A stretch of DNA of 64,000 bases from Gemmatimonadota bacterium (GCA_039930765.1 JBDTTF010000181.1:29307-93306), one strand, 5' to 3'. Positions 40,966 to 58,052 are shown, counted from the stretch's first letter. The notes: generated from the letters alone by a model not told the origin. A program made the numbers and translations.

Positions 40966-41744
40966 CCTTCGGTCCAGGATTGCCGGGCCCCGTCGCGATC
41001 CTCGGAGAACCACTGGGCCCGGCCGAGCTCGTAATACGCTTCGATCAGGTTCGGCCCCAGTTGTACCGTCTTCTGGAAGAAGGTCTGGGCATCCTCGAAC
41101 ATTTCGCGCTCCAGGTAGACCAGCCCGAGATAGTAGTGGGCGTACAGCGTGGCCTTGCGGTCATTGTCGAGCCGGATGGCCTTGGACAGGTGCTCGATGG
41201 CCTCGCCGAAGATCCGCTTCTTGAGGCAGATATACCCGACGTTGATTCGGGCCAGTGAGTTGGCCGGCTCCCGCATCAGCACCTTTGAAAAGGTGGCCAG
41301 CGCGTCGTCGTATTCCTCGTGTAGCATCTGGGCCCACCCCAGCAGCGACTGGGCCTGGGTGTCGTTGGGCGACAGGGTCAGCGCCCGGGTGAGCGACTGA
41401 ATGGCACCGGAGTAATCACCCAGTGAGATCAGGCTCCAGCCCTTCTCGATGAAGGTCGAGGCACCCAGGTGATCGGCATGGATCATCGGCCGCTGGCCGG
41501 TGAACTGGGGTGCCGGGGCTGACTCCGACGAGGCCGCCAGCTGCTTGTAGCGCTCGACCAGTCCCCGGATCTCTTCCTTCAACGCGGTGAGATCGGCCAG
41601 CGCGCCATCGACCCGCTTGAAAAAGGCGATGATCTCCCGCTTGACGATCTCCCGGTCGTTCCCGGTGGTGACTTTCTGCAGCCGGTTGTCGAGTTCGGCG
41701 TACTGCGAGCGGAGCGACGCCACCAATCCTTCTGGCGAATCCAT
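40866..41744 (-). CDS. Coiled-coil + TPR protein
   Basis: 292 aa with an N-terminal coiled coil (SLRSQYAELDNRLQK...EEIRGLVERYKQL) followed by about 5 TPR units. The start ATG overlaps the cheW stop by 1 nt. Confidence 0.7.
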   Translation of the reverse strand: MDSPEGLVASLRSQYAELDNRLQKVTTGNDREIVKREIIAFFKRVDGALADLTALKEEIRGLVERYKQLAASSESAPAPQFTGQRPMIHADHLGASTFIEKGWSLISLGDYSGAIQSLTRALTLSPNDTQAQSLLGWAQMLHEEYDDALATFSKVLMREPANSLARINVGYICLKKRIFGEAIEHLSKAIRLDNDRKATLYAHYYLGLVYLEREMFEDAQTFFQKTVQLGPNLIEAYYELGRAQWFSEDRDGARQSWTEGWKANKFSPWGKRCKEMLESVAAGGEPPRTSPA

Positions 41745-42208
41745 CAGGCCTCCATGGCGGCCAGCGCCAGCCGCTCCTCGGAATTGAGCAGCCGAGCGGC
41801 GTTGAGCAGGATGATCGTCCGATCGGGCTGCGCCACGATGCCGGAGATGTAGACCGCGGCCAGTCCCCTCACCATCGGCGGGGGGGCCGAGATCAGGGCG
41901 GCGTCGATCCGGAGGACTTCGAGCACCTGGTCGACCACGATGGCCACCCGCTGGGTTTCCAGTTCGAGGACCATCATCCGGACCTCTTCGCGGTGATCCG
42001 CCGGCACCGACAGGCGCTTGCGGAGGTCCACCACCGGTACCACCCCGCCGCCGTACCGGACTACCCCTTCGAGGAAGTCGGGGGTACCGGGCAGCATGGC
42101 CGGACGTTCGTAGCGGATGATTCGCTCGACCTGGAAGATGTTGACCGCGAATTCCTGCGGCCCCACCCGGAATGCCACGAACTGTAATTCGTCGCCCGGA
42201 GTGTTCAT
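41744..42208 (-). CDS. cheW: CheW-like coupling protein
   Basis: 154 aa with the CheW domain pattern LQFVAFRVGPQEFAVNIFQVERII...PDFLEGVVRYGGGVVPVVDLRKRL. Confidence 0.85.
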   Translation of the reverse strand: MNTPGDELQFVAFRVGPQEFAVNIFQVERIIRYERPAMLPGTPDFLEGVVRYGGGVVPVVDLRKRLSVPADHREEVRMMVLELETQRVAIVVDQVLEVLRIDAALISAPPPMVRGLAAVYISGIVAQPDRTIILLNAARLLNSEERLALAAMEA

Positions 42209-42636
42209 GCTCGGGTCCCCGCCTCGGCCAGTCGATCGCGAAGCGCGTTCAGGTTGAGTATCGGCACCAGGCCATCGTCCCGCCGGACCACGGCGCTGGC
42301 CCAGGGCAGTGTTTCACCGCTGGGTACCGGCAGCAATTCGCCCCGGGTCATCACATCCACCGCATCGACCTCGAAACAGATCGGTGACCCGTTCAGCTCA
42401 GCTACCAGGGCCAGCTCCGACTGGTGCGCCGGGTGCGGCCCACCAGACAGCAGCGCACCGAGATGAAAGACCGGCATCAGGGTGCCCCGGGCCCAGGTGA
42501 CACCCCGGAGCGACGGTTCGGTGCCGGGAACCTGGTGCACTGCTCCCAGGTCGGCGACTTCAATCACGTCGGCCAGGCGGATCCCGACCGACCGGCCGCC
42601 GGCGGTGGCCAATAGAAAATCGCTGATTTCATTCAT
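42205..42636 (-). CDS. CheW-like coupling protein (divergent)
   Basis: 143 aa with a CheW-like layout ([21 protein letters not shown]...[21 protein letters not shown]). It has 4-nt overlaps on both sides. Confidence 0.7.
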
Positions 42637-43700
42637 GCCCGCCGCCGCCGATCGAGCAGGCCGGTGAGCCGGGCCGCAATTCCCGTCAGCGGCAGCACCT
42701 CATCGGCGCCGCCTCCCTGCACCGCCGATTTGGGCATGCCCCAGACGGTCGAACTGGCCTGGTCCTGCGCGATCCCCCATCCGCCGGCGTCGTGAATGGC
42801 TTTGAGCCCGATGGCGCCATCGCGTCCGAGTCCCGTGAGCACCACGCCGATGGCGGCCCTGCCCCAGACCTGGGCCACCGAGTGAAACAGGGGGTCTGCC
42901 GAGGGACGCACACCCCAGATCGGCGCGGCCTGGTCCAGGGCGATCACCGGCTCCTCGGCTGCCATGATGACTCGCATGTGCCAGTCTCCCGGCGCGATGT
43001 ACACCGTATCGGGGCGCACCGCTTCACCATCCCTGGCTTCCACCACCGCCAGCTGACTCATGGCCGACAGCCGCTCGGCCAGGCTGGCGGTAAACCTCGG
43101 TGGCATGTGCTGGGCGACGACCACCGCGGTGTCCTGGCCGGCCACCAGGTTGGGAATCAGTTCTGCCAGCGCTCGTGGTCCGCCGGTCGAACTTGCGATG
43201 GCCACGGCGCAGCGGGCGTGGCCGATTCGCGGGGTGCTGCTGAGGGAACCGCGCTTGGGACGGGCCAGCATCGGCAATCGTCCAACCACCGCCGCCTGCG
43301 CCGCCCGCATGGCCTCGAGCAGGCGCGGCGCCAGCCGGATCGCCGCGCCGGGGCCGGGAGCGGCATCCTTGGCCACCAGCTCCACCGCGCCAAGTTCGAG
43401 GGCCCGGATCGTGGCCTCGGAACCGGGGCCGGCATAGGCGCTGACCACCACGATTGGGCGGGGCGACTCCGACATGATGTAGCCGATGGCGCCCAGCCCA
43501 TCCAGCTCCGGCATCTGAAGGTCCATGGTGACCAGATCCGGTTGCAGCGAATGGACCAGTTGCAGCCCTTCCATCCCGTTACTGGCGGTGCCCACCACCA
43601 GGAATTCCCCCGACCCGCCGAGAATATCGGAGATCATTCGCCGGTACAGTGCGCTGTCGTCGACGACCAGCACGGTCGGACGGTCAGAGATTCTGGTCAC
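42633..43700 (-). CDS. cheB: Chemotaxis response regulator protein-glutamate methylesterase CheB
   Basis: Trimmed to GTG 43700 ([23 protein letters not shown]...). It has a receiver domain followed by a methylesterase domain ([19 protein letters not shown]) and overlaps cheD by 17 nt. Confidence 0.9.
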
Positions 43701-44172
43701 CGTGCGCCACCGAGCGGACCCTGATCCGGCCATCCGCAACCGCAAAGTGGACCGAGCGGCCGAAGTCGCCACCCACCGCCTCGCCGACGACCGGGATGCC
43801 ATGCTGGTTGAGCACTTCGCGGGTGGCGACCACATTGCGCTCCCCCATCTGCATCGAGCCGGGGGGAGCCAGGTTGGCAAACATCGAAGCCCCGCCGATC
43901 AGCCGCGCCGTGATCCGTCGCTTCTCGGCACCCAGTGCAGTCATTTCCGCCAGCAGCGCGGGAATCGCCGACTGGGGAAATTTGGCGGGATTTTCCGAGC
44001 CGCGCCGCCCCAGCGAGAGCGACGGGAGCAGCACGTGGGCCAATCCGCCAATTTTCGCGGTCGAATCGTACAGGGCGATGGCCACGCAGCTGCCCAGACC
44101 GAGTGTAATCAGCTGGTCGCCGCTGACAGCAGCGGCGAAGTCCGCGACCCGGACAATCTTGTCGGCCGGCAT
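43684..44172 (-). CDS. cheD: Chemoreceptor glutamine deamidase CheD
   Basis: 162 aa with the CheD core [29 protein letters not shown]. Confidence 0.85.
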
Positions 44173-44993
44173 CAGGCGGCCAGCCGGTAGAGTCGTTCGC
44201 GGGCGTCGATCAATTCCAGCCGGTGCCGGCTGGGGCCGAGGATCGTCTCGACCTTGCCGAGCAGCAGGTATCCGCCGGGCCGGAGGGCATCGCAGAAAAT
44301 CTGCATCAATCGTTCCTGGCCTGGCCGGTCGAAATAAATGATGACATTGCGACAGGTGATGAAGTCATAGTTCGGCGCCGGAGCCGGCTCCCGCAGCATG
44401 TCGTGGCGGCGGACCCTGATCCGCTGCCGCAAACGTGGGTCGACCAGGTAGCGCTGGTCGGGCAGGCTGGTAAACCAGCGAGCGATGAGAGCCGGCTCGA
44501 CATCGGCCAGGGCCGCTTCGCTGTAGATGCCGGCCGCCGCCTTTTCGAGCGACAGCCGGTCGATATCGGTGGCATCGATCACGATCCGCTCCAGCCACGC
44601 TGCATGGCCCAGGTCCGCGGCCGCCTCGGCCAGGACCATCGCGAGGGTGTGCGCCTCTTCGCCGGAGGCACAGCCGGCGCACCAGATCTGCCGGAGGCCA
44701 TTGCCGCTGAACAACTCGGGAGCCACCAGCCGGCTGACCGTCTGCCAGGTTTCCCGGTTGCGGTAGAACCGGGTGACGTTGATTGTGAGCACGTCGGTCA
44801 ATCGCTGCATTTCGGTGGCGGACTGCTGGAGCAGCGTCCGAAATTCATCATAGGTATGGACCCCGCACGCCCGCATCCTGACCGCCACCCGCCGGCGGAG
44901 GCACTTGTCCTTGTAGTCACCCAGGGCCAGCCCGGCGCTGGTTGAGATGTAGCCGGTGAGCCGGGCAAACCCTTCATCGTCGCCGGAGGTCAT
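44172..44993 (-). CDS. cheR: Chemotaxis protein methyltransferase CheR
   Basis: 273 aa with TINVTRFYRN and the SAM-binding region IWCAGCASGEEAHTLAMVL. Confidence 0.9.
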   Translation of the reverse strand: MTSGDDEGFARLTGYISTSAGLALGDYKDKCLRRRVAVRMRACGVHTYDEFRTLLQQSATEMQRLTDVLTINVTRFYRNRETWQTVSRLVAPELFSGNGLRQIWCAGCASGEEAHTLAMVLAEAAADLGHAAWLERIVIDATDIDRLSLEKAAAGIYSEAALADVEPALIARWFTSLPDQRYLVDPRLRQRIRVRRHDMLREPAPAPNYDFITCRNVIIYFDRPGQERLMQIFCDALRPGGYLLLGKVETILGPSRHRLELIDARERLYRLAA

Positions 44994-46609
44994 TCGGGTC
45001 CGCCCAGCGTATCCAGGTTGGCCCGGGCCAGCTGGTGGGCCGGATTGAGTTCAAGGGTACGCTGCCACGCCTCGCGGGCCCGCTCGCGATCGCGCCGTTT
45101 GTAGGCAATGTTGCCGAGCTTGAAGTGCAGGTCGTCGCCCAGCTCGGGGCTGAGCTTGGCCGCCCGTTCGTAGGCCTCGAACGCCTCATCGTACATCCCG
45201 GCGCGGTAAGCCAGGTCGCCGAGATTCTTGGAGACCTGCGGCAGCGACGGATCCTCGGCCAGGGCGGCCTTGAGCAGCACCGCGGCACCGTCGAGGTCTC
45301 CGACCAGTTCCAGCAGGGCCGCGAGATTGTTGCGCAGCACCGGGTTGGCCGGATACGCCTCGATCGATTCGCGGCCCAGCGCCAGGGCCGGCTCGATCTC
45401 GCCATTGCCGGCGGCCGCGAGCATCGCGGCCCAGTACCAGAGGGCCGGCGGGGTGCGCTCCCCCAGCAGTTCCCTGGCCCGGGCCAGCCGGCCCTGTGCC
45501 ACGGCCGGATCCTGCCGCTTCAGCGCTGCCACTCCCCAGGCGATCATCGGCCGGATGTCGTCGCGCGCCTTGCTGGCCGCTTCTCCATACAGCTGCTCCG
45601 CTTCGGCAATCCGGCCCAGCTGTTCGAGGGCAAAGGCCAGGTTGTGCAGCACCGCCGGGCGGGCCCCGGGCTGCCCCTGCGCTTCCTTCAGCACCTCCAC
45701 CGCGTCCGACCACCGGGCCTGCCGCAGCGCGATCAGGCCCAGGTAGAACGCCGAACTGGGGTCAGCGGCCCGGAGCTCTGCCACCCGGCGAAATTCGCGC
45801 TGCGCCTCGTCCAGCATTCCGGTCTTGTAGAACGCGATGCCCAGGTTCTGGTGCTCCATGACCCGGGCATCGGTGGCGCGCGGCTCGGTCTTGGCCACCG
45901 AGGTGCCGGTGCGCTTCACGAAACCGGCAGTGATCAGGCCGTACAGGGCCTTGCCGACCTCGAACTCCACCAGACCCGACTCCTCCACCAGCTGGTGGAC
46001 ATCGCGGCGCCCGTCCATCAGGGCCAGTAGCCGGACCTGGCTCGATGACAGTTCGGCATCCGACCCTTCTACCCGCAGCTTGTCGGCCTCAAAGATCAGA
46101 TCGAACGACGGCAGCTTCTTCTCGATCAGGCTCCACTCATCGATCCGGCGGGCCCCTTCGAGCAGCAGCGATTCCGGATTGATGGCGACCAGGAAATCCT
46201 GCTGCTCCGGTCGCATCCCGGCTTCAAAATTGAAAGTGCCGGAGGTCCAGGTAAACAGGAAATAGACCGCCTCCTCGATCTGGAGGCGCATGTACTCCTC
46301 CAGATCGTCGCGGGCGATGACACCCATACCGAGGAGGATCTGGCCCAGCTTCTTGTCGCGGCGATCGGCCTGCTGGCGGATGGCGTCGTCAAGCTGGTCG
46401 ACCGTGATCCGGCCATTCTTGACCAGCAGGTCGCCGATCCGGTCGCGGCGGTTGACGATGCTGGCGTAGCTGATCCGCCCCTGGTCGAAGAAGATGTAGC
46501 CGAAGTTCTGCCGGTCGGCGACCGCCAGGCAGCCGCTCTTCTTGCCCAGCGCCAGGAGCTGGAGCACGTCGGGGAGGCTGGCCTCCTTGAGACTTCCCTT
46601 GATCGCCAT
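44990..46609 (-). CDS. PATAN/DUF4388 domain + TPR protein (paralog 1)
   Basis: 539 aa. The N-terminus MAIKGSLKEASLPDVLQLLALGKKSGCLAVADRQNFGYIFFDQGRISYA matches the DUF4388 pattern. It is followed by LG.IL...G.I helical repeats and a C-terminal TPR array. Confidence 0.75.
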   Translation of the reverse strand: MAIKGSLKEASLPDVLQLLALGKKSGCLAVADRQNFGYIFFDQGRISYASIVNRRDRIGDLLVKNGRITVDQLDDAIRQQADRRDKKLGQILLGMGVIARDDLEEYMRLQIEEAVYFLFTWTSGTFNFEAGMRPEQQDFLVAINPESLLLEGARRIDEWSLIEKKLPSFDLIFEADKLRVEGSDAELSSSQVRLLALMDGRRDVHQLVEESGLVEFEVGKALYGLITAGFVKRTGTSVAKTEPRATDARVMEHQNLGIAFYKTGMLDEAQREFRRVAELRAADPSSAFYLGLIALRQARWSDAVEVLKEAQGQPGARPAVLHNLAFALEQLGRIAEAEQLYGEAASKARDDIRPMIAWGVAALKRQDPAVAQGRLARARELLGERTPPALWYWAAMLAAAGNGEIEPALALGRESIEAYPANPVLRNNLAALLELVGDLDGAAVLLKAALAEDPSLPQVSKNLGDLAYRAGMYDEAFEAYERAAKLSPELGDDLHFKLGNIAYKRRDRERAREAWQRTLELNPAHQLARANLDTLGGPE

Positions 46610-46610
46610 A

Positions 46611-48575
46611 TCAGCGCGGGTCCTCGATCAGGCGATCGGCTGGATCGGGCCAGTCCCAGACCACCTTTTCCCGGCTCTTGATCGAGGCCAGCGGCGAAAT
46701 CACTCCGCTTGCCCGGCCCGCGGTTGACCGGCGAGCCGGAGCGGCGGGCGCCCCTTCAAGCACCCGGCGCGCCAGCCCGGCGGTCGGGGCCAGCTGCTGG
46801 GTTTCCGCTGCGTTGAGCACCCGCTGCACCAGCCCCTGCAGCGCCCGGACCGAATCGACCGCCCGGCCGGCCAGGTAGCTGGCCAGCGGTTCCAGTTCCG
46901 CCGGATCGAGCTGGGCCGGCAGCAGTTTGCGGACGATACCGAACCGGACATCGCGATCCGGAGCGGGCAGTTCAACCACCAGCCCGCCTTCGAGCCTGGT
47001 AATCAGGCGGGCGTCGATGCCCTTGAGCTGGTCCAGCGGCACGGCGCAGGTGAACACCAGCTGGCGGCTGCCCTCGGCCATCAGGTTGAACAGCCAGAAC
47101 AACTCCTCCTGCGAGCGCTCCCGGCCGGCCAGCAACTGCACGTCATCGAGCAGCAGCGCGGTCGCCCGGCGATAACGTGACCGCCACCAGTTGACCCGGT
47201 CCTTCTCGATGGCCTTGATCAGGTCGTCAATGAAATCGGCGGTACCGAGGCAGGCGACGATCGAACCAGGCGCGCGGGCCAGTTCATTGCCCAGGGCCTG
47301 CAGCAGGTGCGTCTTGCCCACACCGGGCTGGCCAACGATCACCAGCGGATTGTACGCCGTGCCCGGCTTGTCGATGATTTCGCGAACCGCACGCAGGGCG
47401 ATCCGGGTCCCGACTCCTTCGGCGAAATCCGACAGGCTGAAGTGCGGACTTGGTGCCGGTGGCGGAAGGGTGCCCTGCCGGGCAGCCTCGACCCGGGCCT
47501 GGGCCTCCGCAACGCTATCGGGATCGCGAAAGATCGAATTGCCGGCCAGGGCAGGATCAAGTTCGGACGCCTCAACCTCGAGCAGCCGGAGCTGTTCGAC
47601 GTCGGCCAGGAACTCGCGCAGCACGGCATCGGGATCGACGGGCGTGTCCTGGTTGAGCAGGGTGGTCAGTCGATGCACCCGGTACCCTTCACCCTCCCAG
47701 CTTTGCAGCGCCTCCGCCACCCGGGTGCGCCAGACCTCGACTTGCTGATTGACCGCCTGGGTGACCTCGGAAAGGAACGAGCTGAATTCATCTCCGGTGG
47801 CGCGCAGCGGCGGCAGCCCGCCACTCGGTGCGCCGGACTCGCCGGCCTGACTGCGACCCTTCTGTCCCAGCACCGCCAGGGCGCCCGCCGCGTCGAGCGG
47901 GCTATCGCTCACGGCCTGAAACGCGATCAGCCGGTTGAGTGCGCCGATCAATTCCCTGACACTGCCATGGCCGAGCCCCGCCACGGTGTCGAGCACCGAC
48001 GGATCGAGCACGGCGCCCCGTTCCTCGGCCTGGCGGCGGAGAATGGCCACCCGGGTCTCGAATTCCGGCGCGGCGATATCGATGACCAGCCCGCCGGCAA
48101 ATCGCTGGATCAGCCGCTCATCCAGCGATTCGATTTCCGAGGGCGCGCGGTCACTGGTCAGCACGATCTGGCGTCCCGCCACCAGCATGGCATTGACCAC
48201 CCGCAGCAACTCGGCCTGCATCTCGCGCCGGTGGGTGAGAAACTGGACGTCATCGAGCAGCAGCAGGTCGATCTCGGTGAACCGGCGGCGGTAGGCATCG
48301 CCCTGGCCAGCGGCCACCGCGGCATGAAAAGCCTCGACGAAATCATCCAGGGTGAGATATTCCACCCGGAGCTGCGGATTGATCGCGGTGGCGGCATGCC
48401 CGATGGCCATCTGCAGGTGGGTCTTGCCGAGCCCCGAGCCGCCGTAGATGAAGAGCGGGTTGTAGACCGCACCGGGGGACTCGCTGACGGCCCGGCCGGC
48501 GGTGGCCGCCAGCCGATTGGCCGCACCCACCACGAAGCTCTCGAACCGGTACCGGGGATTGAGCGGCAGGGTCAC
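46611..48575 (-). CDS. Tandem DnaA-type AAA+ ATPase (two complete DnaA domain-III-like modules, no domain I or IV)
   Basis: 654 aa with a GTG start overlapping the mglA stop (GTGA). Module 1 has [43 protein letters not shown] and [11 protein letters not shown]. Module 2 has [38 protein letters not shown] and [11 protein letters not shown]. No helix-turn-helix DnaA C-terminal domain is visible. Confidence 0.8.
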
Positions 48576-49640: not shown

Positions 49641-49987
49641 CAGGCGACCTGCTCCGCGGCCCGCAGCAACTCCAGCCGGGCCAGCCCGACCGGGGTCTGG
49701 GGGCCGGTGACGATGGCCAGCAGCATGTCCCCGGGTACCCTGGCAATCAGGATACTGCCCTTCTCGGCATGCATCTGCAGGCAGCGGAGATTGCCCCGCC
49801 CCAGCACTTCGCTGAGTGCGGTCACGTGGTCGGCGAGATTGGCGGCCAGCGCGGCAACCCCGGCGCTCTGGATGTCCTCTGCCAACGCCTCGGTGATGAC
49901 CACACCGTCGCTGGCGGAGAGCAGCACGGCGCCGCGGACTCCGCGGATCCGGACCAGCGGCTCGAGAATGGCTTGCAGATCGGGCAT
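49640..49987 (-). CDS. Roadblock/LC7 domain protein (MglB paralog, MglC-like)
   Basis: 115 aa. IRGVRGAVLLSASDGVVITEAL...AALAANL...GSILIARVPGDMLLAIVTGPQTPVGLARLEL is a typical RLC7 pattern. It has 1-nt overlaps on both sides. Confidence 0.75.
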   Translation of the reverse strand: MPDLQAILEPLVRIRGVRGAVLLSASDGVVITEALAEDIQSAGVAALAANLADHVTALSEVLGRGNLRCLQMHAEKGSILIARVPGDMLLAIVTGPQTPVGLARLELLRAAEQVA

Positions 49988-50853
49988 CAGCCGAGCGCTT
50001 CCAGCCAGGCCCGGGCACCGCGAGCCGAACGCTCGGCCATCAGGGTGATCTGGCCGATCGGCACCTCGCGCTCCTGCACTTCGAGCAGGATGGTCTCGGC
50101 AGTCGGTGCCAGCAGGCAGGCGTGCATCCCGTCGCTCTCGATGACCAGCGACCGCCAGGCCCCGAGGCCGACCCGGTCGGCGGTGCGATGGGCTTCGTGG
50201 ACCACCCCTTCCGATTCCGACGCGGCCCGTTCGGTGACATCCTCACCGGTCCAGGTTTCCAGCTTGCCCGCCATGCTCAGGCCGCCACTCCCGATCAGCA
50301 GCCGATGACCGCTCTGCGACCCGGCCGCGCCGAATGGAGTGACCGGACCGCTGGGCGCGGGAGCGGCGGCAGCCGCAGTGGCCGTGGCGATCGCTGACGC
50401 GAATGCATCGACCGGCGGCGCTGCCGCACTCGGCGCGGTCCCGCGTTCCTCGTCCAGCAATTCACGCAGGCGGATAATCGCCGCGTGGAGTCCCTCATCG
50501 CCGGGGGATTCTCGCCAGGCCGCCTCGAGGTGCACCAGCGCCTGGCCGTGGTCAGCGGCCTGGTAGTAGAGGAAGCCGAGCCCCTTGAGCGCGCCCAGGT
50601 GGGTGGGATCGAGCCGGAGCGCCATGTCCCACTCGTCAAAGGCCCGCTGGAAATCCTGGCGGTCCGCCAGGATCCTGGCATACTGGTCGTGGGCGGCGGG
50701 CAGGTGCGGATAGCGGCTGAGACCGTTGACCACGACCTTCTCCGCAACTTCCACCTGCCCTTTGCGGCGCAGTGCCTCCGCCAGGTCGAGAAAGGCCAGG
50801 CTCGAGGGGTCCGACGCGACTTCCGCCGTCAGCGCCCGAATGTCCTCATTCAT
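49987..50853 (-). CDS. TPR + C-terminal Roadblock/LC7-like fusion protein
   Basis: Trimmed to ATG 50853 (MNEDIRALTAEV...). It has N-terminal TPR units, an Ala/Pro linker, then an RLC7-like region at the C-terminus (HRLLIGSGGLSMAGK...WRSLVIESDGMHACLLAP...LLEVQEREVPIGQITL). Confidence 0.6.
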   Translation of the reverse strand: MNEDIRALTAEVASDPSSLAFLDLAEALRRKGQVEVAEKVVVNGLSRYPHLPAAHDQYARILADRQDFQRAFDEWDMALRLDPTHLGALKGLGFLYYQAADHGQALVHLEAAWRESPGDEGLHAAIIRLRELLDEERGTAPSAAAPPVDAFASAIATATAAAAAPAPSGPVTPFGAAGSQSGHRLLIGSGGLSMAGKLETWTGEDVTERAASESEGVVHEAHRTADRVGLGAWRSLVIESDGMHACLLAPTAETILLEVQEREVPIGQITLMAERSARGARAWLEALG

Positions 50854-51994
50854 GTGCGCTCCGCAGAACCTGGTCGAGGGAGATGGTGGCCTGACGTACC
50901 TGATCCAGCCCTGGGGCCTGTGACTCTTCTTCCGGCGGCTTCGGTGCGTGTCCGAACCAGCGGTCGAAGACCTCGGTGGCCTCACGAAACCTGCCCACGG
51001 CAGCCAGGGCGTAACCGAGGTAGCGGAGCGGCACGGCCGTGGTGGTGTCCAGTTCGGCCGACCGCCAGAGGGCATCGACGGCTTCCTCGTACCGGCGGGC
51101 CGCCAGCAGGGCGCGGCCGTAGACCAGCGAGGCCAGCGCCTGGTGTTCGTGAGCCGCGACCGCCGACTCGGCCGCGGCCAGCGCTGCGCTCACGTCGCCG
51201 GCCACGAGGTGGGCCTCGGCCTCTCCGATCTGGAAGGTCAGGCCGCCAGCGGTCGGAGACGCCAGCCTGCGCGAGGCGGGATCTTCAAGGAGAATAATCC
51301 CGGCACTGGCGAGCCCGAAGAGGGTTTTGGCCACGTCGAACTCGGGCCGGCCGAGGGCCGAGGCCAGGGCCCGCACATCGCCGGTGCCGTCGACCACACC
51401 GAGCAGCTCCCACTCATTGGGCAGCAGGTCCAGCGATCCGGCGCTGTCGGAGGCCGGGGCAAAAACCGGAATGATCCCGAGATTCGGAATCCGCTTCTCG
51501 ATCCGGGACCATTCGTCGATTCGCCGGGCCGCCTCCATGAGCAGGAAGCCGACTGGAGTCCGGATCAGCGCTTCGGCCGGCGCCTCGGAGACCGGCCGGT
51601 CCTGAAAAGAGAAATATCCCTCGGACCAGCTCATCAGCTCGAACACCACCTCTTCCGACTGCCGGCGGACCTGGCGGGTCAACTCTCGCTCCGAGATGGC
51701 GCCGATCCCGACCAGGATTTCCCCCAGCCGCCGGGGATCACCGCTCTGCTGCATGGCCCGGGTCCGCATCAGGTCGGCTTCCGCAATCTTGCCAGCCCGC
51801 ACCAGGATGGTGCCGAGCGGATGGGGATTGCTGTCGATCACCGCACCGATGACGCTGCCGTTCTCGAACCAGACCGTGCCCTGATTCTGCCGCAGCTCCG
51901 AGGTGACCTTGAGCACTCCCGTCTTCTGGCTCAGGTCGAGGAGCTGGAACACGTCGTGGATGCCCAGCTCCTTGAGCGGCCCCTCGATGGCCAT
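50846..51994 (-). CDS. PATAN/DUF4388 domain + TPR protein (paralog 2)
   Basis: Trimmed to ATG 51994. MAIEGPLKELGIHDVFQLLDLSQKTGVLKVTSELRQNQGTVWFENGSVIGA matches DUF4388. It has the same middle region as paralog 1 (RRIDEWSRIEKRIP versus RRIDEWSLIEKKLP) and C-terminal TPR units. Confidence 0.75.
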   Translation of the reverse strand: MAIEGPLKELGIHDVFQLLDLSQKTGVLKVTSELRQNQGTVWFENGSVIGAVIDSNPHPLGTILVRAGKIAEADLMRTRAMQQSGDPRRLGEILVGIGAISERELTRQVRRQSEEVVFELMSWSEGYFSFQDRPVSEAPAEALIRTPVGFLLMEAARRIDEWSRIEKRIPNLGIIPVFAPASDSAGSLDLLPNEWELLGVVDGTGDVRALASALGRPEFDVAKTLFGLASAGIILLEDPASRRLASPTAGGLTFQIGEAEAHLVAGDVSAALAAAESAVAAHEHQALASLVYGRALLAARRYEEAVDALWRSAELDTTTAVPLRYLGYALAAVGRFREATEVFDRWFGHAPKPPEEESQAPGLDQVRQATISLDQVLRSAHE

Positions 51995-51996
51995 GG

Positions 51997-54693
51997 CTAG
52001 ACGGCCTGCGGAGTGAAGATCCGCTGCAGATCCTTGGCCGAGCGCGCATTGCTGCGCGCCGCTTGTGCGTGCGGACCGGCAGGATCGGACTGGACCGTCC
52101 GCTCCCACGCGAGGATGGCTTCGGGGTATCGGCGCAGCCGCGCCTGGGCCGTGCCCAGGCTGTACAGCGCCGCCGCATGATCGGGCTGGAATCGCAGGAT
52201 CCGCTCGAACGCCTCGACGGCCCGCTCGGGACGCGCGTCATCGATCAGGCATTTGCCCAGCAGCAGCAGCGCGTCGAGGTCGAACGGTTCGGCGGCCAGG
52301 ATCTGGACCAGGATATCAATACCCGCCGCCGGTGAATCGACCCGGCGCACCAGGTCGGCCAGCGCCAGGGCGGCTTCCATATAGGTGGGCAGCAGGTCGA
52401 TGGCGCGCTGATACGCGACCTTGGCGGCAACCCAGTTTTCCCGCGCCTCCTCGAGACGGCCCAGTTCGACCCATACCGAGGCCACGCCTGGGTCCAGTTG
52501 CAGGGCGGCCTGGTACGCCTCCACCGCAGCGCTCGAATCGCCGAGCCGCAGGGTGGCCCGGGCCTGCAACTGCAGCAGGTCGGCCCGGCCCGGGGCCAGG
52601 ATCTGGGCCTGCCGCAGCGGTTCCAGTGCCCCGCCGGGGTTGGCGCTGGCCAGCCGGGCGCGAGCGGCCGCGACCAGCACCTCGACATCACCGGGATAGT
52701 CCCGAAGCAGTTCGTCCGCCAGCGGGGCCGCCTCTTCGCCGTGATCGAGCGAGAGCAGCGACCTGACTTCGCCAAGCCGGGCGTCCAGGGCCCGCGGGTC
52801 GAGCATCCGGGCCTGCCGGTACCGCTCCAGCGCCTCACCGTGGAGGCCCCGCCGCGCGAACACCAATCCCGTCAGCGCCAGTCCCCGCGCCCGCGGCGCC
52901 CCCCGCTGCAGCGCCCGGTCCAGCTCGGCCGAAGCCTGGTCGAGCAACCCCTTGGCCACGCAGTCAGCGGCGAGGGTCAATCCGTCCTCGACGCCGGGTT
53001 CGCCGACCGCGGTCGGGGCCACCGGCGCCAGCTCCTCGAAAATCCGGTCGAGCAGCCGGGTATCGAGCGTAAAATCCTCGCCGACCTCGGAGCCTTCGAC
53101 ATCGGCCGAGATCTGCGGGGCGATCGCGATCTGGGAATTCTCGAACTGGAGATCGATGGTCAGGGCGTACTTCTGCGGGATGTAGTACGGCTCGATCTCG
53201 AGGGCCCGCTTGGTCTCCCGCAGCGCGCCGTCGAAATCGCCCAGGTGGCTGAGCGTAAAGCTGAGGTTGTAGTGGGCGGCGGCGTGGCCGCTGTCGGCGT
53301 CGACCGCCCGGGAAAAAGCATTGCGGGCATCATCGTACCGCTTGAGCTCGACCAGCACCATGCCGATGCCGTTCCAGGCCACGCTTTCCGACGGCCGGTC
53401 GCTCAACGCCTGACGGTACGCCTCGATGGCATCCTGGAATTTCCGGCGCTGGAACAGCAGCAGCCCGTAGTTGAGCCGCGGACCCGACAGCCCGGAGCTG
53501 ATCCGCAGCGCCTGGCGGAACGCCTCGAGGGAGGCGGCCGGATCGGGATCCTGCGCCAGCAAGACGCCGAGGTTATTCCAGGCCAGTGCATATGAGCTGT
53601 CGAGCGCCAGCGCCTGGCGGTACGAGTCCTCGGCGGCCTGACGGCGTCCGGACTGATGCAGGCAGACTCCCCGCTCGTTCCAGATCTTGGGCGAGTCAGC
53701 CGCTTCCTTCGACAACTGCTCGTACAGTCCGAGTGCGGCGGGCAGGTCCCGCCGGAGCAGATGGACTTCAGCCATGGCCTGCAGCACCAGCCGCCGGTCC
53801 TCACTGGCCTCGAGCGCCAGCTTGTATTCCCGCAGGGCCTCGACGTAGTAACCCTTTTGCCGGAAGGCGAGGCCGAGGTTGTAATGCGCCAGCGCCCCGC
53901 CAACGCTGATCGCCGGACGGGGACTCTCGATGGCCTTCTGGACCTCCCGCGAAATCCGCCCGCTGTCCCGGCGGCGGCCGAGCGAGAGATTACTCTGGGC
54001 CCGGGCCAGCGTCGGGTTCAGTGCGATGGCGCGCTTGGTCGCGGCCCGGGCCGCCTCGTGATCGCCCTGGTCGCCATACACAAAGGCCAGCAGGTAGTGC
54101 GCGTCGGCGTGATCCGGGTTTCTGGCAATGACCTTTTCCAGCACCCGCTGCGACTGCTCCGAGATGCCGCGGTTGTACAGCACCTCGCCGTAATGGAACA
54201 ACGTGACCGGTCCATCCGGATCGAGGCTGGTGGCCCGCCGCAGGTAATCCTCGGCCGCTTCGAGCCGGCCCCGGGCCTTTTCCGCCATGCCCAGCTGCAC
54301 CAGGCAGGCGACATCATCGGGATCCTTCTGCAGCAGCAGCTCGTACTCCGCCACCGCCTCGGCATGGTGCCCGAGCGAGGCGTAGGTCCGGGCCAGTTCC
54401 CAGCGGGCCTCGTGATCGTCCTCGCCGCGGCGCAGCCGGTCCTTGAGTTCGCCGACCCGCCGGTCGTAGTAACCATGGGCGTGGTAGGCGATCTCGAGAT
54501 TGGTCTGGGCCACCTGCATCTTGGGATCGAGCTCGAGCGAACGCAGAAACTGGGTGATGGCTTCCGCCACCAGCCCTTTCTGGTAGTACAGCACCCCGAG
54601 ATTGTTGTGGGCACCTGCGTCGGAGGGATCGATCCGGCGGGCAAAGGAGCGAAGAACCGCGAGGTCCCGCTCGGAGAGGGCGGGAACGCTCAC
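51997..54693 (-). CDS. Large TPR repeat protein (898 aa)
   Basis: TPR units are near-continuous from N- to C-terminus (repeated A...Y..AL.LDP motifs). There is no signal peptide and no enzymatic motif. Confidence 0.8.
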   Translation of the reverse strand: MSVPALSERDLAVLRSFARRIDPSDAGAHNNLGVLYYQKGLVAEAITQFLRSLELDPKMQVAQTNLEIAYHAHGYYDRRVGELKDRLRRGEDDHEARWELARTYASLGHHAEAVAEYELLLQKDPDDVACLVQLGMAEKARGRLEAAEDYLRRATSLDPDGPVTLFHYGEVLYNRGISEQSQRVLEKVIARNPDHADAHYLLAFVYGDQGDHEAARAATKRAIALNPTLARAQSNLSLGRRRDSGRISREVQKAIESPRPAISVGGALAHYNLGLAFRQKGYYVEALREYKLALEASEDRRLVLQAMAEVHLLRRDLPAALGLYEQLSKEAADSPKIWNERGVCLHQSGRRQAAEDSYRQALALDSSYALAWNNLGVLLAQDPDPAASLEAFRQALRISSGLSGPRLNYGLLLFQRRKFQDAIEAYRQALSDRPSESVAWNGIGMVLVELKRYDDARNAFSRAVDADSGHAAAHYNLSFTLSHLGDFDGALRETKRALEIEPYYIPQKYALTIDLQFENSQIAIAPQISADVEGSEVGEDFTLDTRLLDRIFEELAPVAPTAVGEPGVEDGLTLAADCVAKGLLDQASAELDRALQRGAPRARGLALTGLVFARRGLHGEALERYRQARMLDPRALDARLGEVRSLLSLDHGEEAAPLADELLRDYPGDVEVLVAAARARLASANPGGALEPLRQAQILAPGRADLLQLQARATLRLGDSSAAVEAYQAALQLDPGVASVWVELGRLEEARENWVAAKVAYQRAIDLLPTYMEAALALADLVRRVDSPAAGIDILVQILAAEPFDLDALLLLGKCLIDDARPERAVEAFERILRFQPDHAAALYSLGTAQARLRRYPEAILAWERTVQSDPAGPHAQAARSNARSAKDLQRIFTPQAV

Positions 54694-54696
54694 GGC

Positions 54697-55317
54697 TCAG
54701 GTCAGGCGGATGGCGTCGAAAATCACCCGGAGCGACGCCACGTCCGGCAGCAGCAGGAAGTGACCGGTCAGGTTGAGGGTGCGGTCCTCGAGCAGGAACT
54801 CGGTCTCGACGCAGAACACGAAATCGCGGGCATAGCCGAAGTTCATGTAGGTCGAGGTCAGCACGGCCCCGCACAGGTCGATGGCCAGGCTGGGCACCGA
54901 GGGAACCAGCATCATCCCCATGAAATCACTGAGGGCGTTGAGATAGGCGCTCGACAGGATGTTGCCGACCTCCTTGAGGCCGGACTGCTCCATGGCGCCG
55001 AACACCTCGGTAGTGCCGATCGGACGCTTGAGCAGGATGTCGCAGAGCTGCCGGGCGCTGGGCTCGGGGAAGATCAGCAGGGTGCGGCCGGTCAGATCGC
55101 CCATCATGTGCATCAGCACCGCGGCGACGACATCATCCGCCTTGCCCAGCACTTCGGGCACTTCCTCGAGGCGGGTGATATTCACCTCGGGAACGCTGAT
55201 CATGATGGTGCGATTGGTCAGCTGCGACAGCGCAGTGGCCGCGTGGCCCGCCCCGATGTTGGCCACCTCGCGGAGGGCATCCTGCTGCAGTGCGTGCAAG
55301 TCCCGTACGTCGTCCAT
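54697..55317 (-). CDS. cheC: CheC-like CheY-P phosphatase
   Basis: 206 aa with DALREVANIGAGHAATALSQL and a second half-site, GLKEVGNILSSAYLNALS. Confidence 0.8.
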   Translation of the reverse strand: MDDVRDLHALQQDALREVANIGAGHAATALSQLTNRTIMISVPEVNITRLEEVPEVLGKADDVVAAVLMHMMGDLTGRTLLIFPEPSARQLCDILLKRPIGTTEVFGAMEQSGLKEVGNILSSAYLNALSDFMGMMLVPSVPSLAIDLCGAVLTSTYMNFGYARDFVFCVETEFLLEDRTLNLTGHFLLLPDVASLRVIFDAIRLT

Positions 55318-55325
55318 GGCAGCTC

Positions 55326-57206
55326 CTAGACCAGCGCGGCCGGATCGAGGATGAGCACCGGCACTCCGTCACCCAGAATCGTTGCACCGCTGAAGACCGG
55401 CAGCATTCCCCGCGGCCCATCGAACGGCTCCACCACGATCTCCTGCTGGCCGACCAGGGCATCGACCACCAGCGCCAGCCGGCGACCTCCGACATCGATC
55501 ACGATGGCGGGCCGGCGGCCCTCGGTGCGCCGCGGTCCCACGCCCAGCCGTTCACGCAGGTGCATGGTCGGAATCACCTGGTCCCGCAGCACCAGCGCCT
55601 CGCGGCCCTGGACCTCGGCCGAACGAGCGCCACTGAACTCCAGGGTCTCGGCCACGCTGGTCAGCGGCACCGCGTAGCGTTCGTCGCCGACCCGGGCCAG
55701 CAGTGCCCGCAGGATCGCGAGGCTGGTGGGCAGGTGCAGGGTGAAGGTGCTGCCCTCTCCCTCGACCGAGTGCAGGTGGACCGAGCCGCCGAGCGACCGG
55801 ACCCGCGACACCACCGCGTCCATTCCCATGCCACGACCCGACACATCCGTGACCTGTGCCGCGGTCGAGAAACCAGGCCGGATGACGACTCGCAGCAGCT
55901 GGTCGTCGGTCAACGACGTGGAACCCGGTTCCACCAGGCTTTCCCGCAGCGCCTTATCCAGGACCCGCTGCCGGTTGATCCCGGCGCCGTCATCGATCAC
56001 CCGGATCGCGACGCCGGCCCGCTCGCGGGTGGCGCTCAGTTTGACCCGGGCTTCGGCCGGCTTGTTCCGCCGCTTCCGCTCCGCCGGCGATTCGATCCCG
56101 TGATCGACCGCGTTGCGGAGCAGGTGGATCAGCGGCTCGCCGAGTTCGTCGAGCAGGGCGCGATCGAGTTCGATCTCTTCGCCTTCGACCTCGAACGCCA
56201 CCCGCTTGCCGAGCTGACGGGACAGGTCACGCACCACCCGCGGGAACCGGTCGAACACCTGCCACACCGGTGTCATCCGGGCCTGGATGACCTCGGACTG
56301 CATCTCGGCGACCACCCGGGCCACCCGGGCACTCACCGCTTCGAGCTCGGGATTGCCTTCGCGGGAAACCAGTTCCGCCAGCCGGCCCTTGGCCACCACC
56401 AGCTCACCGACCTGGTTCATCAGGGCGTCGAGCCGGCGGAGGTCGACCCGGATCTGTCGATTGCGGCCGGTGCCCTCTGCCCCCGCCCTGTCATCGGCCG
56501 CCGGGGCAATCGGGGGGGCCAGATCACCGATGTCGACGCTGCCGACATCCCCGGCGCCCAGCAGGATGGTGCGGATTTCGTCGTCCGTCCGGGACGATTC
56601 CAGCCGGAAGGCAAACCGGCCATCGAACTCGTCCTGGTCGAAGCTGGCCGAGGCGGGCCTGACCGATGCCACGGTGCCCAGCCCTTCGGCCTTGCGCAGC
56701 GCGATTAATGCCCGGGCCCCACGCATGGCGGCACCTGGCCGGATCGCGATCCGGACCACCCGCCCGGTGGTACCGACCACCGGCTCGGGAATCCGGGCCG
56801 GGATGGCCCAGCTGCCGGTGGGCTGCGCCGCAACCGAGGCGTTGTCGAGCCCGGCGAACAGCCCGGTAAAATCCAGGGCGCTGTCGTTGCCGGCCACTGC
56901 ATCGTTAACGCCAGCTTCCAGCGCGTCCACGATGGCGAACATCAGGTCATGCAGCTCGGGCGAGGCGGAGCCCGGATCGCTGCGAAGCACATCGAGCAGG
57001 CTCTCGGCCCGGTGCGCCAGCTCGGTGAGGTTCGAGTACCCCATCGCGGCGGCCATGCCCTTGAAGGTGTGCATGGCCCGGAAAATTCCGACCACCGGTT
57101 CGGTGGCCCGGGGATCCCGCTCCCAGTCGAGCAACAGCTGGCTGCAGGCGCCGAGGTGTTCGCGGCTCTCGGTAACGAAGAGGGTGGCGTACCTCGACAG
57201 GTCCAT
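55326..57206 (-). CDS. cheA: Chemotaxis histidine kinase CheA
   Basis: Trimmed to ATG 57206 (MDLSRYATLF...). It has an Hpt domain with AMHTFKGMAA, a dimerisation region, HATPase boxes HLLRNAVDHGIE, DDGAGI and GRGMGMD, and a C-terminal CheW-like P5 domain. Confidence 0.9.
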   Translation of the reverse strand: MDLSRYATLFVTESREHLGACSQLLLDWERDPRATEPVVGIFRAMHTFKGMAAAMGYSNLTELAHRAESLLDVLRSDPGSASPELHDLMFAIVDALEAGVNDAVAGNDSALDFTGLFAGLDNASVAAQPTGSWAIPARIPEPVVGTTGRVVRIAIRPGAAMRGARALIALRKAEGLGTVASVRPASASFDQDEFDGRFAFRLESSRTDDEIRTILLGAGDVGSVDIGDLAPPIAPAADDRAGAEGTGRNRQIRVDLRRLDALMNQVGELVVAKGRLAELVSREGNPELEAVSARVARVVAEMQSEVIQARMTPVWQVFDRFPRVVRDLSRQLGKRVAFEVEGEEIELDRALLDELGEPLIHLLRNAVDHGIESPAERKRRNKPAEARVKLSATRERAGVAIRVIDDGAGINRQRVLDKALRESLVEPGSTSLTDDQLLRVVIRPGFSTAAQVTDVSGRGMGMDAVVSRVRSLGGSVHLHSVEGEGSTFTLHLPTSLAILRALLARVGDERYAVPLTSVAETLEFSGARSAEVQGREALVLRDQVIPTMHLRERLGVGPRRTEGRRPAIVIDVGGRRLALVVDALVGQQEIVVEPFDGPRGMLPVFSGATILGDGVPVLILDPAALV

Positions 57207-57210
57207 CGCG

Positions 57211-57573
57211 TCAGCCGAGGATGCGCTGCACCGCCTCGAGCACCCGTGACGGCTGGAATGGCTTGACCACGAAATCCTTGGCCCCCGCCTGCACCGCCTC
57301 CACGACCAGCGCCTGCTGTCCCATGGCACTGCACATCAGGATCTTGGCGTCGGGGTCGTTCTTGCAGATTTCGCGCACGGCATCGATGCCGCCCATGTCG
57401 GGCATCACGATGTCCATGGTGACCAGGTCGGGCTTGAGTTCACGATAGCGATCCACCGCCTCGCGACCGGTCTCGGCCTCGCCGACGACCTCGAATCCGG
57501 CCTGGGTCAGGATGTCGCTGATCATGGTGCGCATGAAGATGGCGTCGTCGCAGACTAGCACAGTGTGGCTCAC
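57211..57573 (-). CDS. cheY: Single-domain response regulator CheY
   Basis: 120 aa with a GTG start preceded by GGAGGG. It has the receiver residues VCDDA, TMDIVMP and FVVKPF. Confidence 0.9.
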   Translation of the reverse strand: MSHTVLVCDDAIFMRTMISDILTQAGFEVVGEAETGREAVDRYRELKPDLVTMDIVMPDMGGIDAVREICKNDPDAKILMCSAMGQQALVVEAVQAGAKDFVVKPFQPSRVLEAVQRILG

Positions 57574-57614
57574 GCGCCCTCCGGGCGATATGGGTCCAGC
57601 AGTAGCGGGGCGGC

Positions 57615-58052
57615 TCAGCCGCCGACGAGCGGAGCCACCAGGGCCCCGGGATCCAGCAGAATAAAAACTCGATCGTTGTAGCGCCCGACCGCGCGGACCA
57701 GTGCGGGATCAATACCGGGCATCCGCTCCGCAGCGGCCAGGCTGGCGACCTCGACGTCAATCAGGTCCAGCACTTCATCGACCTCCAGCCCGACCATCCG
57801 CCCTTCGAGTGCCAGCACCAGGACGGATGTGGCCCCGACCGCGACCGGTGCCCGCTGCAGCACGGCCGCTCCCCGGGCCACCGTCAACAATGAGCCCCGA
57901 ACGTTGATCAGGCCGTCGATCGCAGCCGGGGCTCCCGGAATTCGGGTGGCCGGCTGGGCCGGGATGATTTCGCGGATGGTCTCGACGGCCAAGGCGCAGC
58001 ACAGGTCAGCGACCTGGAAGACCACGAGCCGGACCCTCGGAGAATCAGCCAT
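57615..58052 (-). CDS. cheW: CheW-like coupling protein
   Basis: Trimmed to ATG 58052 (MADSPRVRLVVFQVADLCCALAVETIREII...IDGLINVRGSLLTV). The start overlaps the rluD 3' end by 8 nt. Confidence 0.8.
   Translation of the reverse strand: MADSPRVRLVVFQVADLCCALAVETIREIIPAQPATRIPGAPAAIDGLINVRGSLLTVARGAAVLQRAPVAVGATSVLVLALEGRMVGLEVDEVLDLIDVEVASLAAAERMPGIDPALVRAVGRYNDRVFILLDPGALVAPLVGG

Follow-up and report, generated by a model that had tools for sequence, protein, structure and literature searches.

Introduction

In Myxococcus, the Frz chemosensory pathway acts on the GTPase MglA and its partner MglB (PMC3441718); how the array signals to MglA is unsettled even in this organism, and the proteins that would connect them are disputed (PMC13408092). 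According to a genomic survey (PMC4316618), mglA is not found near the Frz or RomR partner genes in either Myxococcus or Bdellovibrio, which agrees with the statement of the original prediction, made on the DNA described here, that the connection is one between separate loci. This DNA is a stretch of 64,000 nucleotides from a Gemmatimonadota bacterium (GCA_039930765.1 JBDTTF010000181.1:29307-93306), which as a whole is called the window in this work. It carries che genes and an mglA/mglB block interleaved in one train of minus-strand genes, together with PATAN-TPR proteins and a tandem DnaA-like ATPase (AAA2).

In chemosensory regulators of the PatA type, the output domain is PATAN (DUF4388), which in Synechocystis binds PilB1 and PilC (bioRxiv 10.1101/2021.06.11.447907). 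PATAN proteins have also been among the candidates weighed alongside the MglA effector SgmX (PMC11580455), a TPR protein reported to act together with MglA on pili in Myxococcus (PMC7519303). According to PMC4316618, some group 1 and group 5 mglA genes are found near PATAN genes, as Makarova et al. (2006) had reported for mglB, and the adjacency of PATAN with MglA/MglB is therefore already published. Table S2 of the same survey gives, for G. aurantiaca, the arrangements 'MglB>MglA>' at GAU_1115 and 'PATAN>MglA>-PATAN>' at GAU_1409. As for G. phototrophica, the PMC9862903 supplement gives the order RluA-CheW-RR-[3 genes]-DUF4388-GTPase-[3 genes]-CheB (RR, response regulator) at ~1.872-1.887 Mb of NZ_CP011454.1, with the GTPase gene directly after the PATAN gene and no Roadblock genes between them. 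A separate Roadblock plus MglA pair and a second CheA (RS15835) lie at 1.536 Mb and 3.74 Mb of this genome. The RS15835 CheA is reported there as co-induced with flagellar genes, and the cheW, response regulator, GTPase and cheB genes of the cluster show small expression changes (four rows).

The original prediction had regarded the composition of the window locus as that of an uncharacterised system. This holds for the full set of genes, of which no description was found in the literature searched, but not for the PATAN-MglA adjacency. The interleaving with che genes, the DnaA-like partner and the conservation through the phylum were not found in that literature either, the coverage of which was incomplete.

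Results

Conservation of the gene train in close relatives

The collection that was searched holds one genome per species, and relatives of the tandem ATPase are encoded in 363 of its stretches. The best 80, each from a different genome record, were examined, and gene order was read by tblastn of the window proteins. All 80 loci keep the order rluD-cheW1-cheY-cheA-cheC-TPR898-PATAN1-TPRrbl-Rbl-mglB-mglA-AAA2-PATAN2-cheR-cheD-cheB-cheW2-cheW3-TPR292-peptidase-TPR571-rsmH as far as their contigs reach (gene labels as in Table 1, with TPRrbl and Rbl for the TPR-Roadblock and 115-residue Roadblock genes and TPR571 for a secreted TPR protein), down to an ATPase identity of 56%, and no insertion of more than 400 bp was found inside the train in any of them. 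The che genes thus stand on both sides of the mgl block in the window, as had been proposed, and also in its relatives. The opposite outcome, a one-off rearrangement that brought together che and mgl genes lying at unrelated loci elsewhere, does not fit these colinear loci and their conserved junctions.

The spacing of the genes is conserved together with their order. Median junction gaps across the loci range from -17 to +10 nt, except for the 36 nt between cheW1 and cheY. In at least 98% of the loci, none of the cheC/TPR898, mglA/AAA2, AAA2/PATAN2 and PATAN2/cheR seams exceeds 20 nt. The slowest-evolving proteins of the train are CheY and MglA, followed by CheC and TPR292. CheY, the most conserved of all, is 86-99% identical across loci, with 77% of its positions invariant in 52 sequences, and the corresponding identities are 78-100% for MglA, 72-99% for CheC and 69-100% for TPR292. 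The cheW2 gene is variable and went undetected in several loci, such as L016, L022 and L023.

All of the best 80 loci come from records of Gemmatimonadota or Gemmatimonadales, with the exception of L063. This locus belongs to a metagenome-assembled genome labelled 'Myxococcales bacterium'. Its gene order nevertheless matches that of the Gemmatimonadales loci, and its AAA2 shares 58% identity with the window protein; the label in the public record probably reflects a mistake in binning or taxonomy.

Modular variants in divergent loci

Distant members of the tandem ATPase family were sought in the full library, and the neighbourhoods of the divergent loci were inspected. A profile built from these distant members still returned, in its top 120 matches, proteins at least 52% identical to that of the window. 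In a metagenome scan with the group-D alignment and the generic pattern GKTHLLHAI, 75 of 80 loci corresponded to ordinary dnaA genes, and L089 to L093 were the useful ones. Every family member that bears a taxon name belongs to Gemmatimonadota, and the family has diversified to ~25-30% pairwise identity while keeping the C-terminal motif EKxVWxWPxxxDRLIEE.

The divergent loci form a series of modular variants. The full train is present in the window clade, L090 and L093, and the partial contigs L089, L091 and L092 agree with it, whereas L083 and L084 carry the full train minus both trailing cheW genes. The L085 locus reads ileS-dksA-lspA-rluD-cheY-cheC, followed by the mgl block, AAA2, PATAN2, TPR292 and the peptidase gene, and lacks cheA, cheW, cheR, cheD and cheB; L086 has this same type of arrangement without any che gene. 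More reduced are L082 and L087, with the order yggS-divIVA-PNP-ileS-rluD-AAA2-PATAN2-peptidase and neither che genes nor mglA. A cheW-cheY-cheA-(STAND-like)-cheW-cheC-TPR-PATAN-AAA2 arrangement occurs in L088, in other genomic surroundings and with mglAB and Roadblock genes missing, and finally, L081 shows a TPR-AAA2 pair near bactofilin genes.

Some partners follow their modules closely through the series. The TPR898 gene is kept in all variants with the mgl block and has a TPR analogue in L081 and L088, TPR292 accompanies the mgl block in L085 and L086, and the peptidase gene adjoins AAA2-PATAN2 even in the minimal loci L082 and L087. Immediately 5′ of the large TPR gene there is invariably cheC, which is also the gene retained with cheY in L085. 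What all the variants share is only the tandem ATPase, accompanied by a PATAN and/or TPR partner. The series therefore indicates that the core of the system is this pair and not the GTPase, and that the Che pathway and MglA/MglB were, as it seems, joined to it as regulatory layers. The original reading of a sensory input with the GTPase as output is too simple, since L088, L082 and L087 lack mglA and the GTPase is an optional layer. The linkage of che, TPR, PATAN and AAA2 genes that was kept after relocation in L088 is the strongest in-silico case for their functional coupling.

Several other features of the divergent loci can be recorded. The L081 pair (3765-4667), the most divergent of the TPR-AAA2 pairs, lies a few genes 3′ of two tandem bactofilin genes. 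In L088, a STAND/AAA_22-like protein of 272 residues and a CheW-domain protein of 344 residues are encoded between cheA and cheC (4035-5923), and the PATAN protein of this locus is short (248 residues) and devoid of TPR repeats. In L087, a locus without an MglA gene, positions 9564-10004 just 5′ of the tandem ATPase gene encode an MglB-like Roadblock protein of 146 residues, an orphan partner.

The tandem DnaA-like ATPase

The N-terminal half of AAA2 matches domain III of Bacillus subtilis DnaA (PDB 8bv3) with an E value of 5e-56, and is ~42-47% identical to the domain III of bona fide DnaA proteins. In the AlphaFold2 model (mean confidence score pLDDT 83.8), the protein folds into two DnaA-type AAA+ modules, with a helical domain at residues 263-368, and Foldseek places one of these modules on 8bv3 with a TM score of 0.95 and a root-mean-square deviation of 1.4 Å. 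Within the window clade, neither half shows any variation at the residues of Walker A and B, box VII and sensor II. In L082 and L087, as well as in the proteins P0169, P0180 and P0198, the second domain has lost Walker A (GVAARVL in place of GxGKT) and Walker B (HG in place of DD), whereas the first domain is intact.

Despite this likeness, AAA2 does not have the domain make-up of a DnaA initiator, as Pfam detects neither DnaA_N nor Bac_DnaA_C in it. It also differs from Hda/HdaA, with 145 bits against a cutoff of 194.8 for TIGR03420 and a tandem instead of a single short domain, and no clamp motif of the QL[SP]LPL type was found at its N-terminus. In public data, an identical protein (100%) from a Gemmatimonadota metagenome-assembled genome, the type of source from which the window comes, is named 'DnaA/Hda family protein' at NCBI, and the annotation at JGI is 'chromosomal replication initiator protein DnaA'. 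AAA2 exceeds the TIGR00362 cutoff for DnaA (453 against 344 bits), which explains the replication initiator labels, and the DnaA label on these tandem proteins is a systematic misannotation across Gemmatimonadota.

The tail of AAA2 (residues ~611-654, encoded at 46611-46740 of the window) is predicted to be disordered, with pLDDT values below 50. The C-terminal motif mentioned above lies in this tail and is kept in nearly all divergent members inspected, down to ~30% identity. The tail looks like a short linear docking motif, the ligand of which could possibly be the TPR domain of PATAN2, whose gene is the next one after AAA2 in the syntenic loci.

PATAN-TPR proteins and the membrane-anchored peptidase

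Both PATAN domains of the train contain an alpha-helical insertion with two tandem MshEN-type motifs of 24 residues, which span residues 57-108 in PATAN2 and 59-112 in PATAN1. The two motifs of the PATAN2 insertion are RIGDLLVKNGRITVDQLDDAIRQQ and KLGQILLGMGVIARDDLEEYMRLQ. Against NF053729, a model of the MshE-related cyclic di-GMP (c-di-GMP) motif with a cutoff of 38 bits, PATAN2 scores 46.5 bits and PATAN1 33.5 bits, just under the cutoff. Residues 45-120 of PATAN2 also match, in sequence, the N-terminal domains with which the ATPases PilF (6f8l, E 2.7e-7), PilB (5tsg) and MshE (5htl, E 1.2e-4) bind c-di-GMP. The protein has the two tandem RLGxxLLxxGxIxxxxLxxALxxQ motifs by which MshEN domains are recognised, with conserved R/K-L/I-G cores, but, in contrast to the MshEN domains of MshE, PilB and PilF, they lie inside the PATAN domain and not at the N-terminus of a secretion ATPase. 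A likeness of the PATAN insertion to the N-termini of pilus ATPases had been noted earlier (bioRxiv 10.1101/2021.06.11.447907). The motif suggests that the PATAN-TPR proteins may be c-di-GMP receptors, for which we draw on the description of the MshEN motif in PMC5013675, where PATAN is not mentioned. Neither of the two proteins is of the PatA type (PATAN fused to a receiver domain), as both carry TPR repeats and no Response_reg domain is found in them by Pfam.

The peptidase of the Peptidase_MA_2 family encoded at the 3′ end of the train has an N-terminal signal or transmembrane segment, a C-terminal transmembrane helix and a conserved cytoplasmic tail. This tail reads RRRxDRPRRAALDxGW and continues into an acidic, proline-rich end. 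With such a topology, the peptidase could perhaps tether the cytoplasmic TPR proteins to the membrane.

MglA, MglB and the Roadblock proteins

The mglA gene had been correctly named from the start. Apart from its match to MglA 5ymx, the protein shows a GPGRSGKT P-loop, an R-T pair in the stretch 'TDRTLFFDF', a G3 motif TVPGQ and an NKQD motif, and the positions of these motifs are invariant in 76 sequences. According to PMC4316618, group-1 MglA is defined by an R-T pair in G2 and by TVPGQ as its G3 motif, and the window protein has both, together with the P-loop and NKxD motifs and the arginine beside the G2 threonine. A coupled mglB gene, as in group-1 MglA, is also present: the 153-residue protein is encoded directly upstream and the adjacency is conserved.

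The assignment of this neighbour as MglB is less clear-cut. It rests on the match to MglB 6h5b (E 4e-6), whereas Pfam gives no match and the NCBIfam model for MglB reaches 29 bits against a cutoff of 200. By homology, the protein is predicted to be the GTPase-activating protein (GAP) of MglA. A comparable case is that of the TPR-Roadblock protein, in which Pfam detects no Roadblock domain in the window sequence, while its C-terminus, aligned profile to profile with the Roadblock family by hhalign, reaches a probability of 89% (E 2e-6) and its orthologue in L083 has a precomputed Robl_LC7 match; the name proposed for it is retained on these last two grounds.

Chemosensory proteins

The single-domain CheY of the train aligns with Thermotoga maritima CheY (1TMY) with 181 bits (E 8e-53). 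Compared by eye, the alpha4-beta5-alpha5 faces of both proteins appear nearly identical. CheY and CheB contain the only receiver domains of the locus detected by Pfam, which bears out the remark that proteins of the RomR/RomX type are not visible. No gene for a methyl-accepting chemotaxis protein (MCP), the receptor of such pathways, was found by Pfam in the train, so the machine is not self-contained in the sense originally proposed. The pathway is not of the Frz type either, as the locus has no receiver on CheA, no dual receiver and no MCP. Similarly, Pfam finds no ParA/CbiA-type ATPase and no CheW-fusion adaptor in the block, which sets it apart from the positioning systems of the ParC/ParP and PpfA types.

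Gene content, junctions and surroundings of the train

Open reading frame listing, inspection of start codons and Pfam scans of the window recovered the 17 genes in the order and on the strand of the original prediction (Table 1). Every overlap that it had listed was reproduced, as was the 41-nt gap between cheW and cheY, although the 17-nt overlap of cheD and cheB requires the GTG at 43700 as the start of cheB. The limits of the train are a different matter: all the genes named are present, but the train continues past 41744 and past 58052. At its 5′ end, the stop of rluD overlaps the start of cheW1 by 8 nt, and further 5′ of rluD are lspA, a DksA-type zinc-finger gene, ileS and the PNP gene. 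At the other end, TPR292 shares 1 nt with cheW3, and the Peptidase_MA_2 gene comes next downstream.

Table 1. Genes of the che/mgl train and its 3′ extension, in window coordinates.
Gene or product	Coordinates	Strand	Assignment
cheW1	57615..58052	-	Pfam CheW E 1.5e-25
cheY, single-domain response regulator	57211..57573	-	Pfam Response_reg E 3e-31
cheA, P1-P2-P3-P4-P5, without receiver domain	55326..57206	-	Pfam Hpt, P2, H-kinase_dim, HATPase_c, CheW; PDB CheA E 1e-86
cheC, CheY-P phosphatase family	54697..55317	-	Pfam CheC E 1e-21
TPR898, cytoplasmic TPR protein of 898 residues, putative scaffold	51997..54693	-	many Pfam TPR families
PATAN1, PATAN(DUF4388)-TPR protein 1	50846..51994	-	Pfam DUF4388 E 4e-30
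TPR protein with C-terminal Roadblock-like domain	49987..50853	-	Pfam TPR; hhalign of C-terminus
Roadblock/LC7 protein, 115 residues, MglB paralogue	49640..49987	-	Pfam Robl_LC7 E 2e-9
mglB-like Roadblock protein, 153 residues	49179..49640	-	PDB MglB 6h5b E 4e-6
mglA, group-1 MglA GTPase	48572..49174	-	PDB MglA 5ymx E 4e-72
AAA2, tandem DnaA-domain-III AAA+ ATPase	46611..48575	-	two Pfam Bac_DnaA stretches (PF00308)
PATAN2, PATAN(DUF4388)-TPR protein 2	44990..46609	-	Pfam DUF4388 E 2e-36
cheR	44172..44993	-	Pfam CheR and CheR_N
cheD	43684..44172	-	Pfam CheD E 3e-28
cheB, receiver and methylesterase	42633..43700	-	Pfam CheB_methylest and Response_reg
cheW2	42205..42636	-	Pfam CheW
cheW3	41744..42208	-	Pfam CheW E 5e-32
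TPR292, coiled-coil and TPR protein of 292 residues	40866..41744	-	Pfam TPR
Peptidase_MA_2 protein	39997..40965	-	Pfam

The rest of the window contains a tRNA-Val, a secreted TPR protein, a tRNA-Asp and the complete division and cell wall (dcw) cluster from rsmH to ftsZ. Nearly the whole 64 kb, dcw cluster included, is co-directional with tight junctions, so that close packing does not single out the che and mgl genes. The G+C content of the window is ~67%, flat over the whole 64 kb. Terminator-like sites show no enrichment, with 6 seen against 7.0 expected. The sole sigma-70-like promoter match within 39600-59500 lies at 40022-39994, just upstream of tRNA-Val. The two tRNA genes, tRNA-Asp (37798-37873) and tRNA-Val (39713-39787), flank the secreted 571-residue TPR gene and lie between the che/mgl train and rsmH. 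Another TPR gene, coding for 327 residues (25712-26695), sits in the murG-murC interval of the dcw cluster, and the gaps of ~220 and ~420 nt beside it are the only sizeable intergenic gaps of this cluster. A reading of the region as a defence island or mobile element was dropped without a dedicated test, on the grounds of its flat G+C content and of a locus that is syntenic and vertically inherited.

Discussion

A proposed mechanism

The reading that we put forward, and to which we give an even chance of being right, is that the train encodes a module for signalling and polarity that is inherited vertically throughout Gemmatimonadota, serves a polar organelle and is modulated by a Che pathway and by c-di-GMP. 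The gene content, its conservation, the series of variants, the intact catalytic motifs and the MshEN-type motif are established by the comparisons above, whereas the protein-protein steps of this module and its output organelle, as set out below, are what we infer. Its core, as the comparison of loci shows, is formed by the tandem DnaA-domain-III ATPase and a PATAN-TPR protein, usually encoded beside the membrane-anchored MA-type peptidase. A first layer on this core would comprise the group-1 MglA, MglB, two more Roadblock proteins, a second PATAN-TPR protein and the large TPR scaffolds, and a second one would be made of CheA, three CheW, CheY, CheC as phosphatase and, for adaptation, CheR, CheB and CheD, with receptors encoded elsewhere in the genome.

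The signal would start at receptor arrays that control CheA, which would phosphorylate CheY, the lifetime of CheY-P being limited by CheC. The phosphorylated regulator would then dock on the scaffold of TPR, PATAN and Roadblock proteins, possibly through CheC, a module that binds CheY-P, a route suggested by the fact that cheC always abuts the large TPR gene. Once docked, CheY-P may alter the GAP action of MglB and hence the GTP-GDP state of MglA, or else the location of MglA. The insertions of the PATAN domains would supply a second input, which is likely to be c-di-GMP. The tandem ATPase, for its part, could act as an ATP-dependent assembly platform, the tail of which may be gripped by the TPR repeats of its PATAN partner. 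Finally, the output would be the identity or the activity of the pole that bears the motility organelle. Type IV pili are the favoured candidate, because PATAN binds PilB1 and PilC, MglA and SgmX act on pili, PATAN proteins are candidates in connection with SgmX, and the MshEN motif of the insertions resembles that of PilB, and a polar flagellum is possible as well.

A bolder version of this mechanism, which we consider rather doubtful, would place the ATPase derived from a replication initiator at the heart of a polarity machine. Through its tail the ATPase would bind a PATAN-TPR protein that senses c-di-GMP, and the peptidase would anchor it to the envelope, with MglA/MglB and Che as interchangeable layers, and CheY-P, acting through CheC, would flip the identity of the pole. 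If true, it would mean that a chemosensory array can reach a Ras-like GTPase without RomR, and that a filament of DnaA domain III was exapted for polarity. The close packing of che, mgl and DnaA-like genes in one train throughout the phylum suggests a hard-wired link of sensing to cell polarity, and the variants amount to a natural 'deletion series', which nominates the CheY-CheC interface, the PATAN-TPR adaptors and the DnaA-derived tandem ATPase core. As cultured, polarly flagellated Gemmatimonas carry a version of the locus, the predictions are testable.

Alternative explanations

Several observations weigh against a signalling module of the kind proposed. The ileS-rluD flank and the dcw cluster are as syntenic and tight as the train itself, so the conservation of order within Gemmatimonadales is by itself weak evidence. 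The PATAN core of the PATAN2 model is of low confidence. The loci L086, with mgl and no che genes, and L088, with che and no mgl genes, show that either layer can work without the other. Moreover, the CheY of T. maritima, to which that of the window is close, has solved complexes with FliM and with the P2 domain of CheA. The set of CheA, CheW, CheY, CheB, CheR, CheC and CheD without an MCP at the locus presumably fits the flagellar F1 class, and these features of the chemosensory genes are together compatible with a plain flagellar role.

The che genes could then constitute a flagellar operon of the F1 type, in which the inserted block, co-expressed with the che genes, would position the array and/or the single polar flagellum or serve as their landmark, and CheY-P would not signal to MglA. 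We see this as unlikely, though less so than the remaining alternatives. The score of CheY against its T. maritima counterpart and the F1-like gene set speak in its favour, as does the L086 block, which has no che genes at all. A system for positioning that is co-expressed with a chemosensory pathway has a precedent, as parC and parP sit inside the che operon of Vibrio. Gemmatimonas cells bear a single polar flagellum (PMC9862903), another point in its favour; however, the CheA of G. phototrophica that this source reports as co-induced with flagellar genes belongs to another locus. The L085 variant retains cheY and cheC without cheA or cheW, which would be odd for the positioning of arrays, whereas L088 keeps cheW-cheY-cheA-cheC joined to TPR-PATAN-AAA2 after relocation, and the block itself lacks the ParA-type ATPase or CheW-fusion adaptor.

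The signalling module has also to be weighed against a role in the cell cycle, which we judge improbable: the block or its tandem ATPase would tie polarity to replication initiation, to the division site or to budding, through hetero-oligomers with DnaA or through the division apparatus, and che and mgl would only be inputs. The close resemblance of the N-terminal half of AAA2 to DnaA domain III, both in sequence and in structure, speaks for this reading, but the protein lacks domain IV, domain I and any clamp motif of the Hda type. In every syntenic variant the locus occupies a fixed site between (yggS-divIVA-)PNP-ileS-lspA-rluD and rsmH-ftsL-ftsI, although such a position could simply be synteny that has become frozen. 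The loci of L088 and L081 are found at other sites, that of L081 next to bactofilin genes. The envelope anchoring of the partner peptidase would also agree with a link to division, while MglA, PATAN and the MshEN-type motifs point to motility machinery in the systems known.

It is finally conceivable, at a very low probability, that the adjacency has no function, and that an unrelated block was once inserted into a che operon of a compact, co-directional and slowly rearranging region. That the flanking housekeeping genes are equally syntenic and tight is in line with this scenario. However, the linkage of che, TPR, PATAN and AAA2 genes recurs in another context in L088, the cheY and cheC genes were selectively kept with the block in L085, and the start/stop overlaps of cheC with the TPR gene and of PATAN2 with cheR are conserved in at least 98% of loci. 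The functional links of Che with PATAN and with MglA have, in addition, independent precedents.

Comparison with known systems

The closest functional parallel to the proposed signalling module is that of M. xanthus. The Frz-MglA/MglB system shares with the window locus a group-1 MglA that has the TVPGQ motif and an arginine finger of its own, an mglB gene (in the window, one for an MglB-like protein, the putative GAP), extra Roadblock paralogues (cf. MglC), large TPR proteins (cf. SgmX) and a CheA-CheW-CheR-CheB pathway. In M. xanthus, according to PMC4316618, frz and mgl are separate, whereas in the window the genes are interleaved and overlapping. The window locus has no RomR/RomX, no dual receiver of the FrzZ type, no CheA-CheY hybrid and no in-cluster cytoplasmic receptor; instead, it encodes a Thermotoga-like CheY, CheC, CheD, the PATAN-TPR proteins and the tandem DnaA-like ATPase.

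The cyanobacterial Tax/Pix systems, which control type IV pili through PatA-type regulators, are similar to the window locus in having che and PATAN genes in one operon, and a PATAN insertion that resembles the N-terminus of pilus or type II secretion ATPases. However, their PATAN domain is fused to a receiver, while those of the window are fused to TPR repeats and the receiver is a separate CheY. The window adds MglA/MglB and the AAA+ protein, and it has no MCP or photoreceptor at the locus.

With regard to the DnaA/Hda family, AAA2 shares the domain III fold and the Walker A/B, box VII and sensor II elements in both of its halves. It differs in having two copies of domain III with a helical domain between them and no domain I, II or IV, and in its genomic partners, which are PATAN and TPR proteins and not replication genes.

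The surveys of PATAN and MglA (Makarova 2006; Wuichet and Sogaard-Andersen 2014) record the same association as that of the window locus. In the text and table rows consulted, however, the bracketing che genes, the tandem DnaA-like gene (an unnamed '-' in the arrangement), the Roadblock paralogues, the conservation through the phylum and the modular variants go unrecorded. The finding described here is anticipated only in part by the literature, and the tandem ATPase is a new core component.

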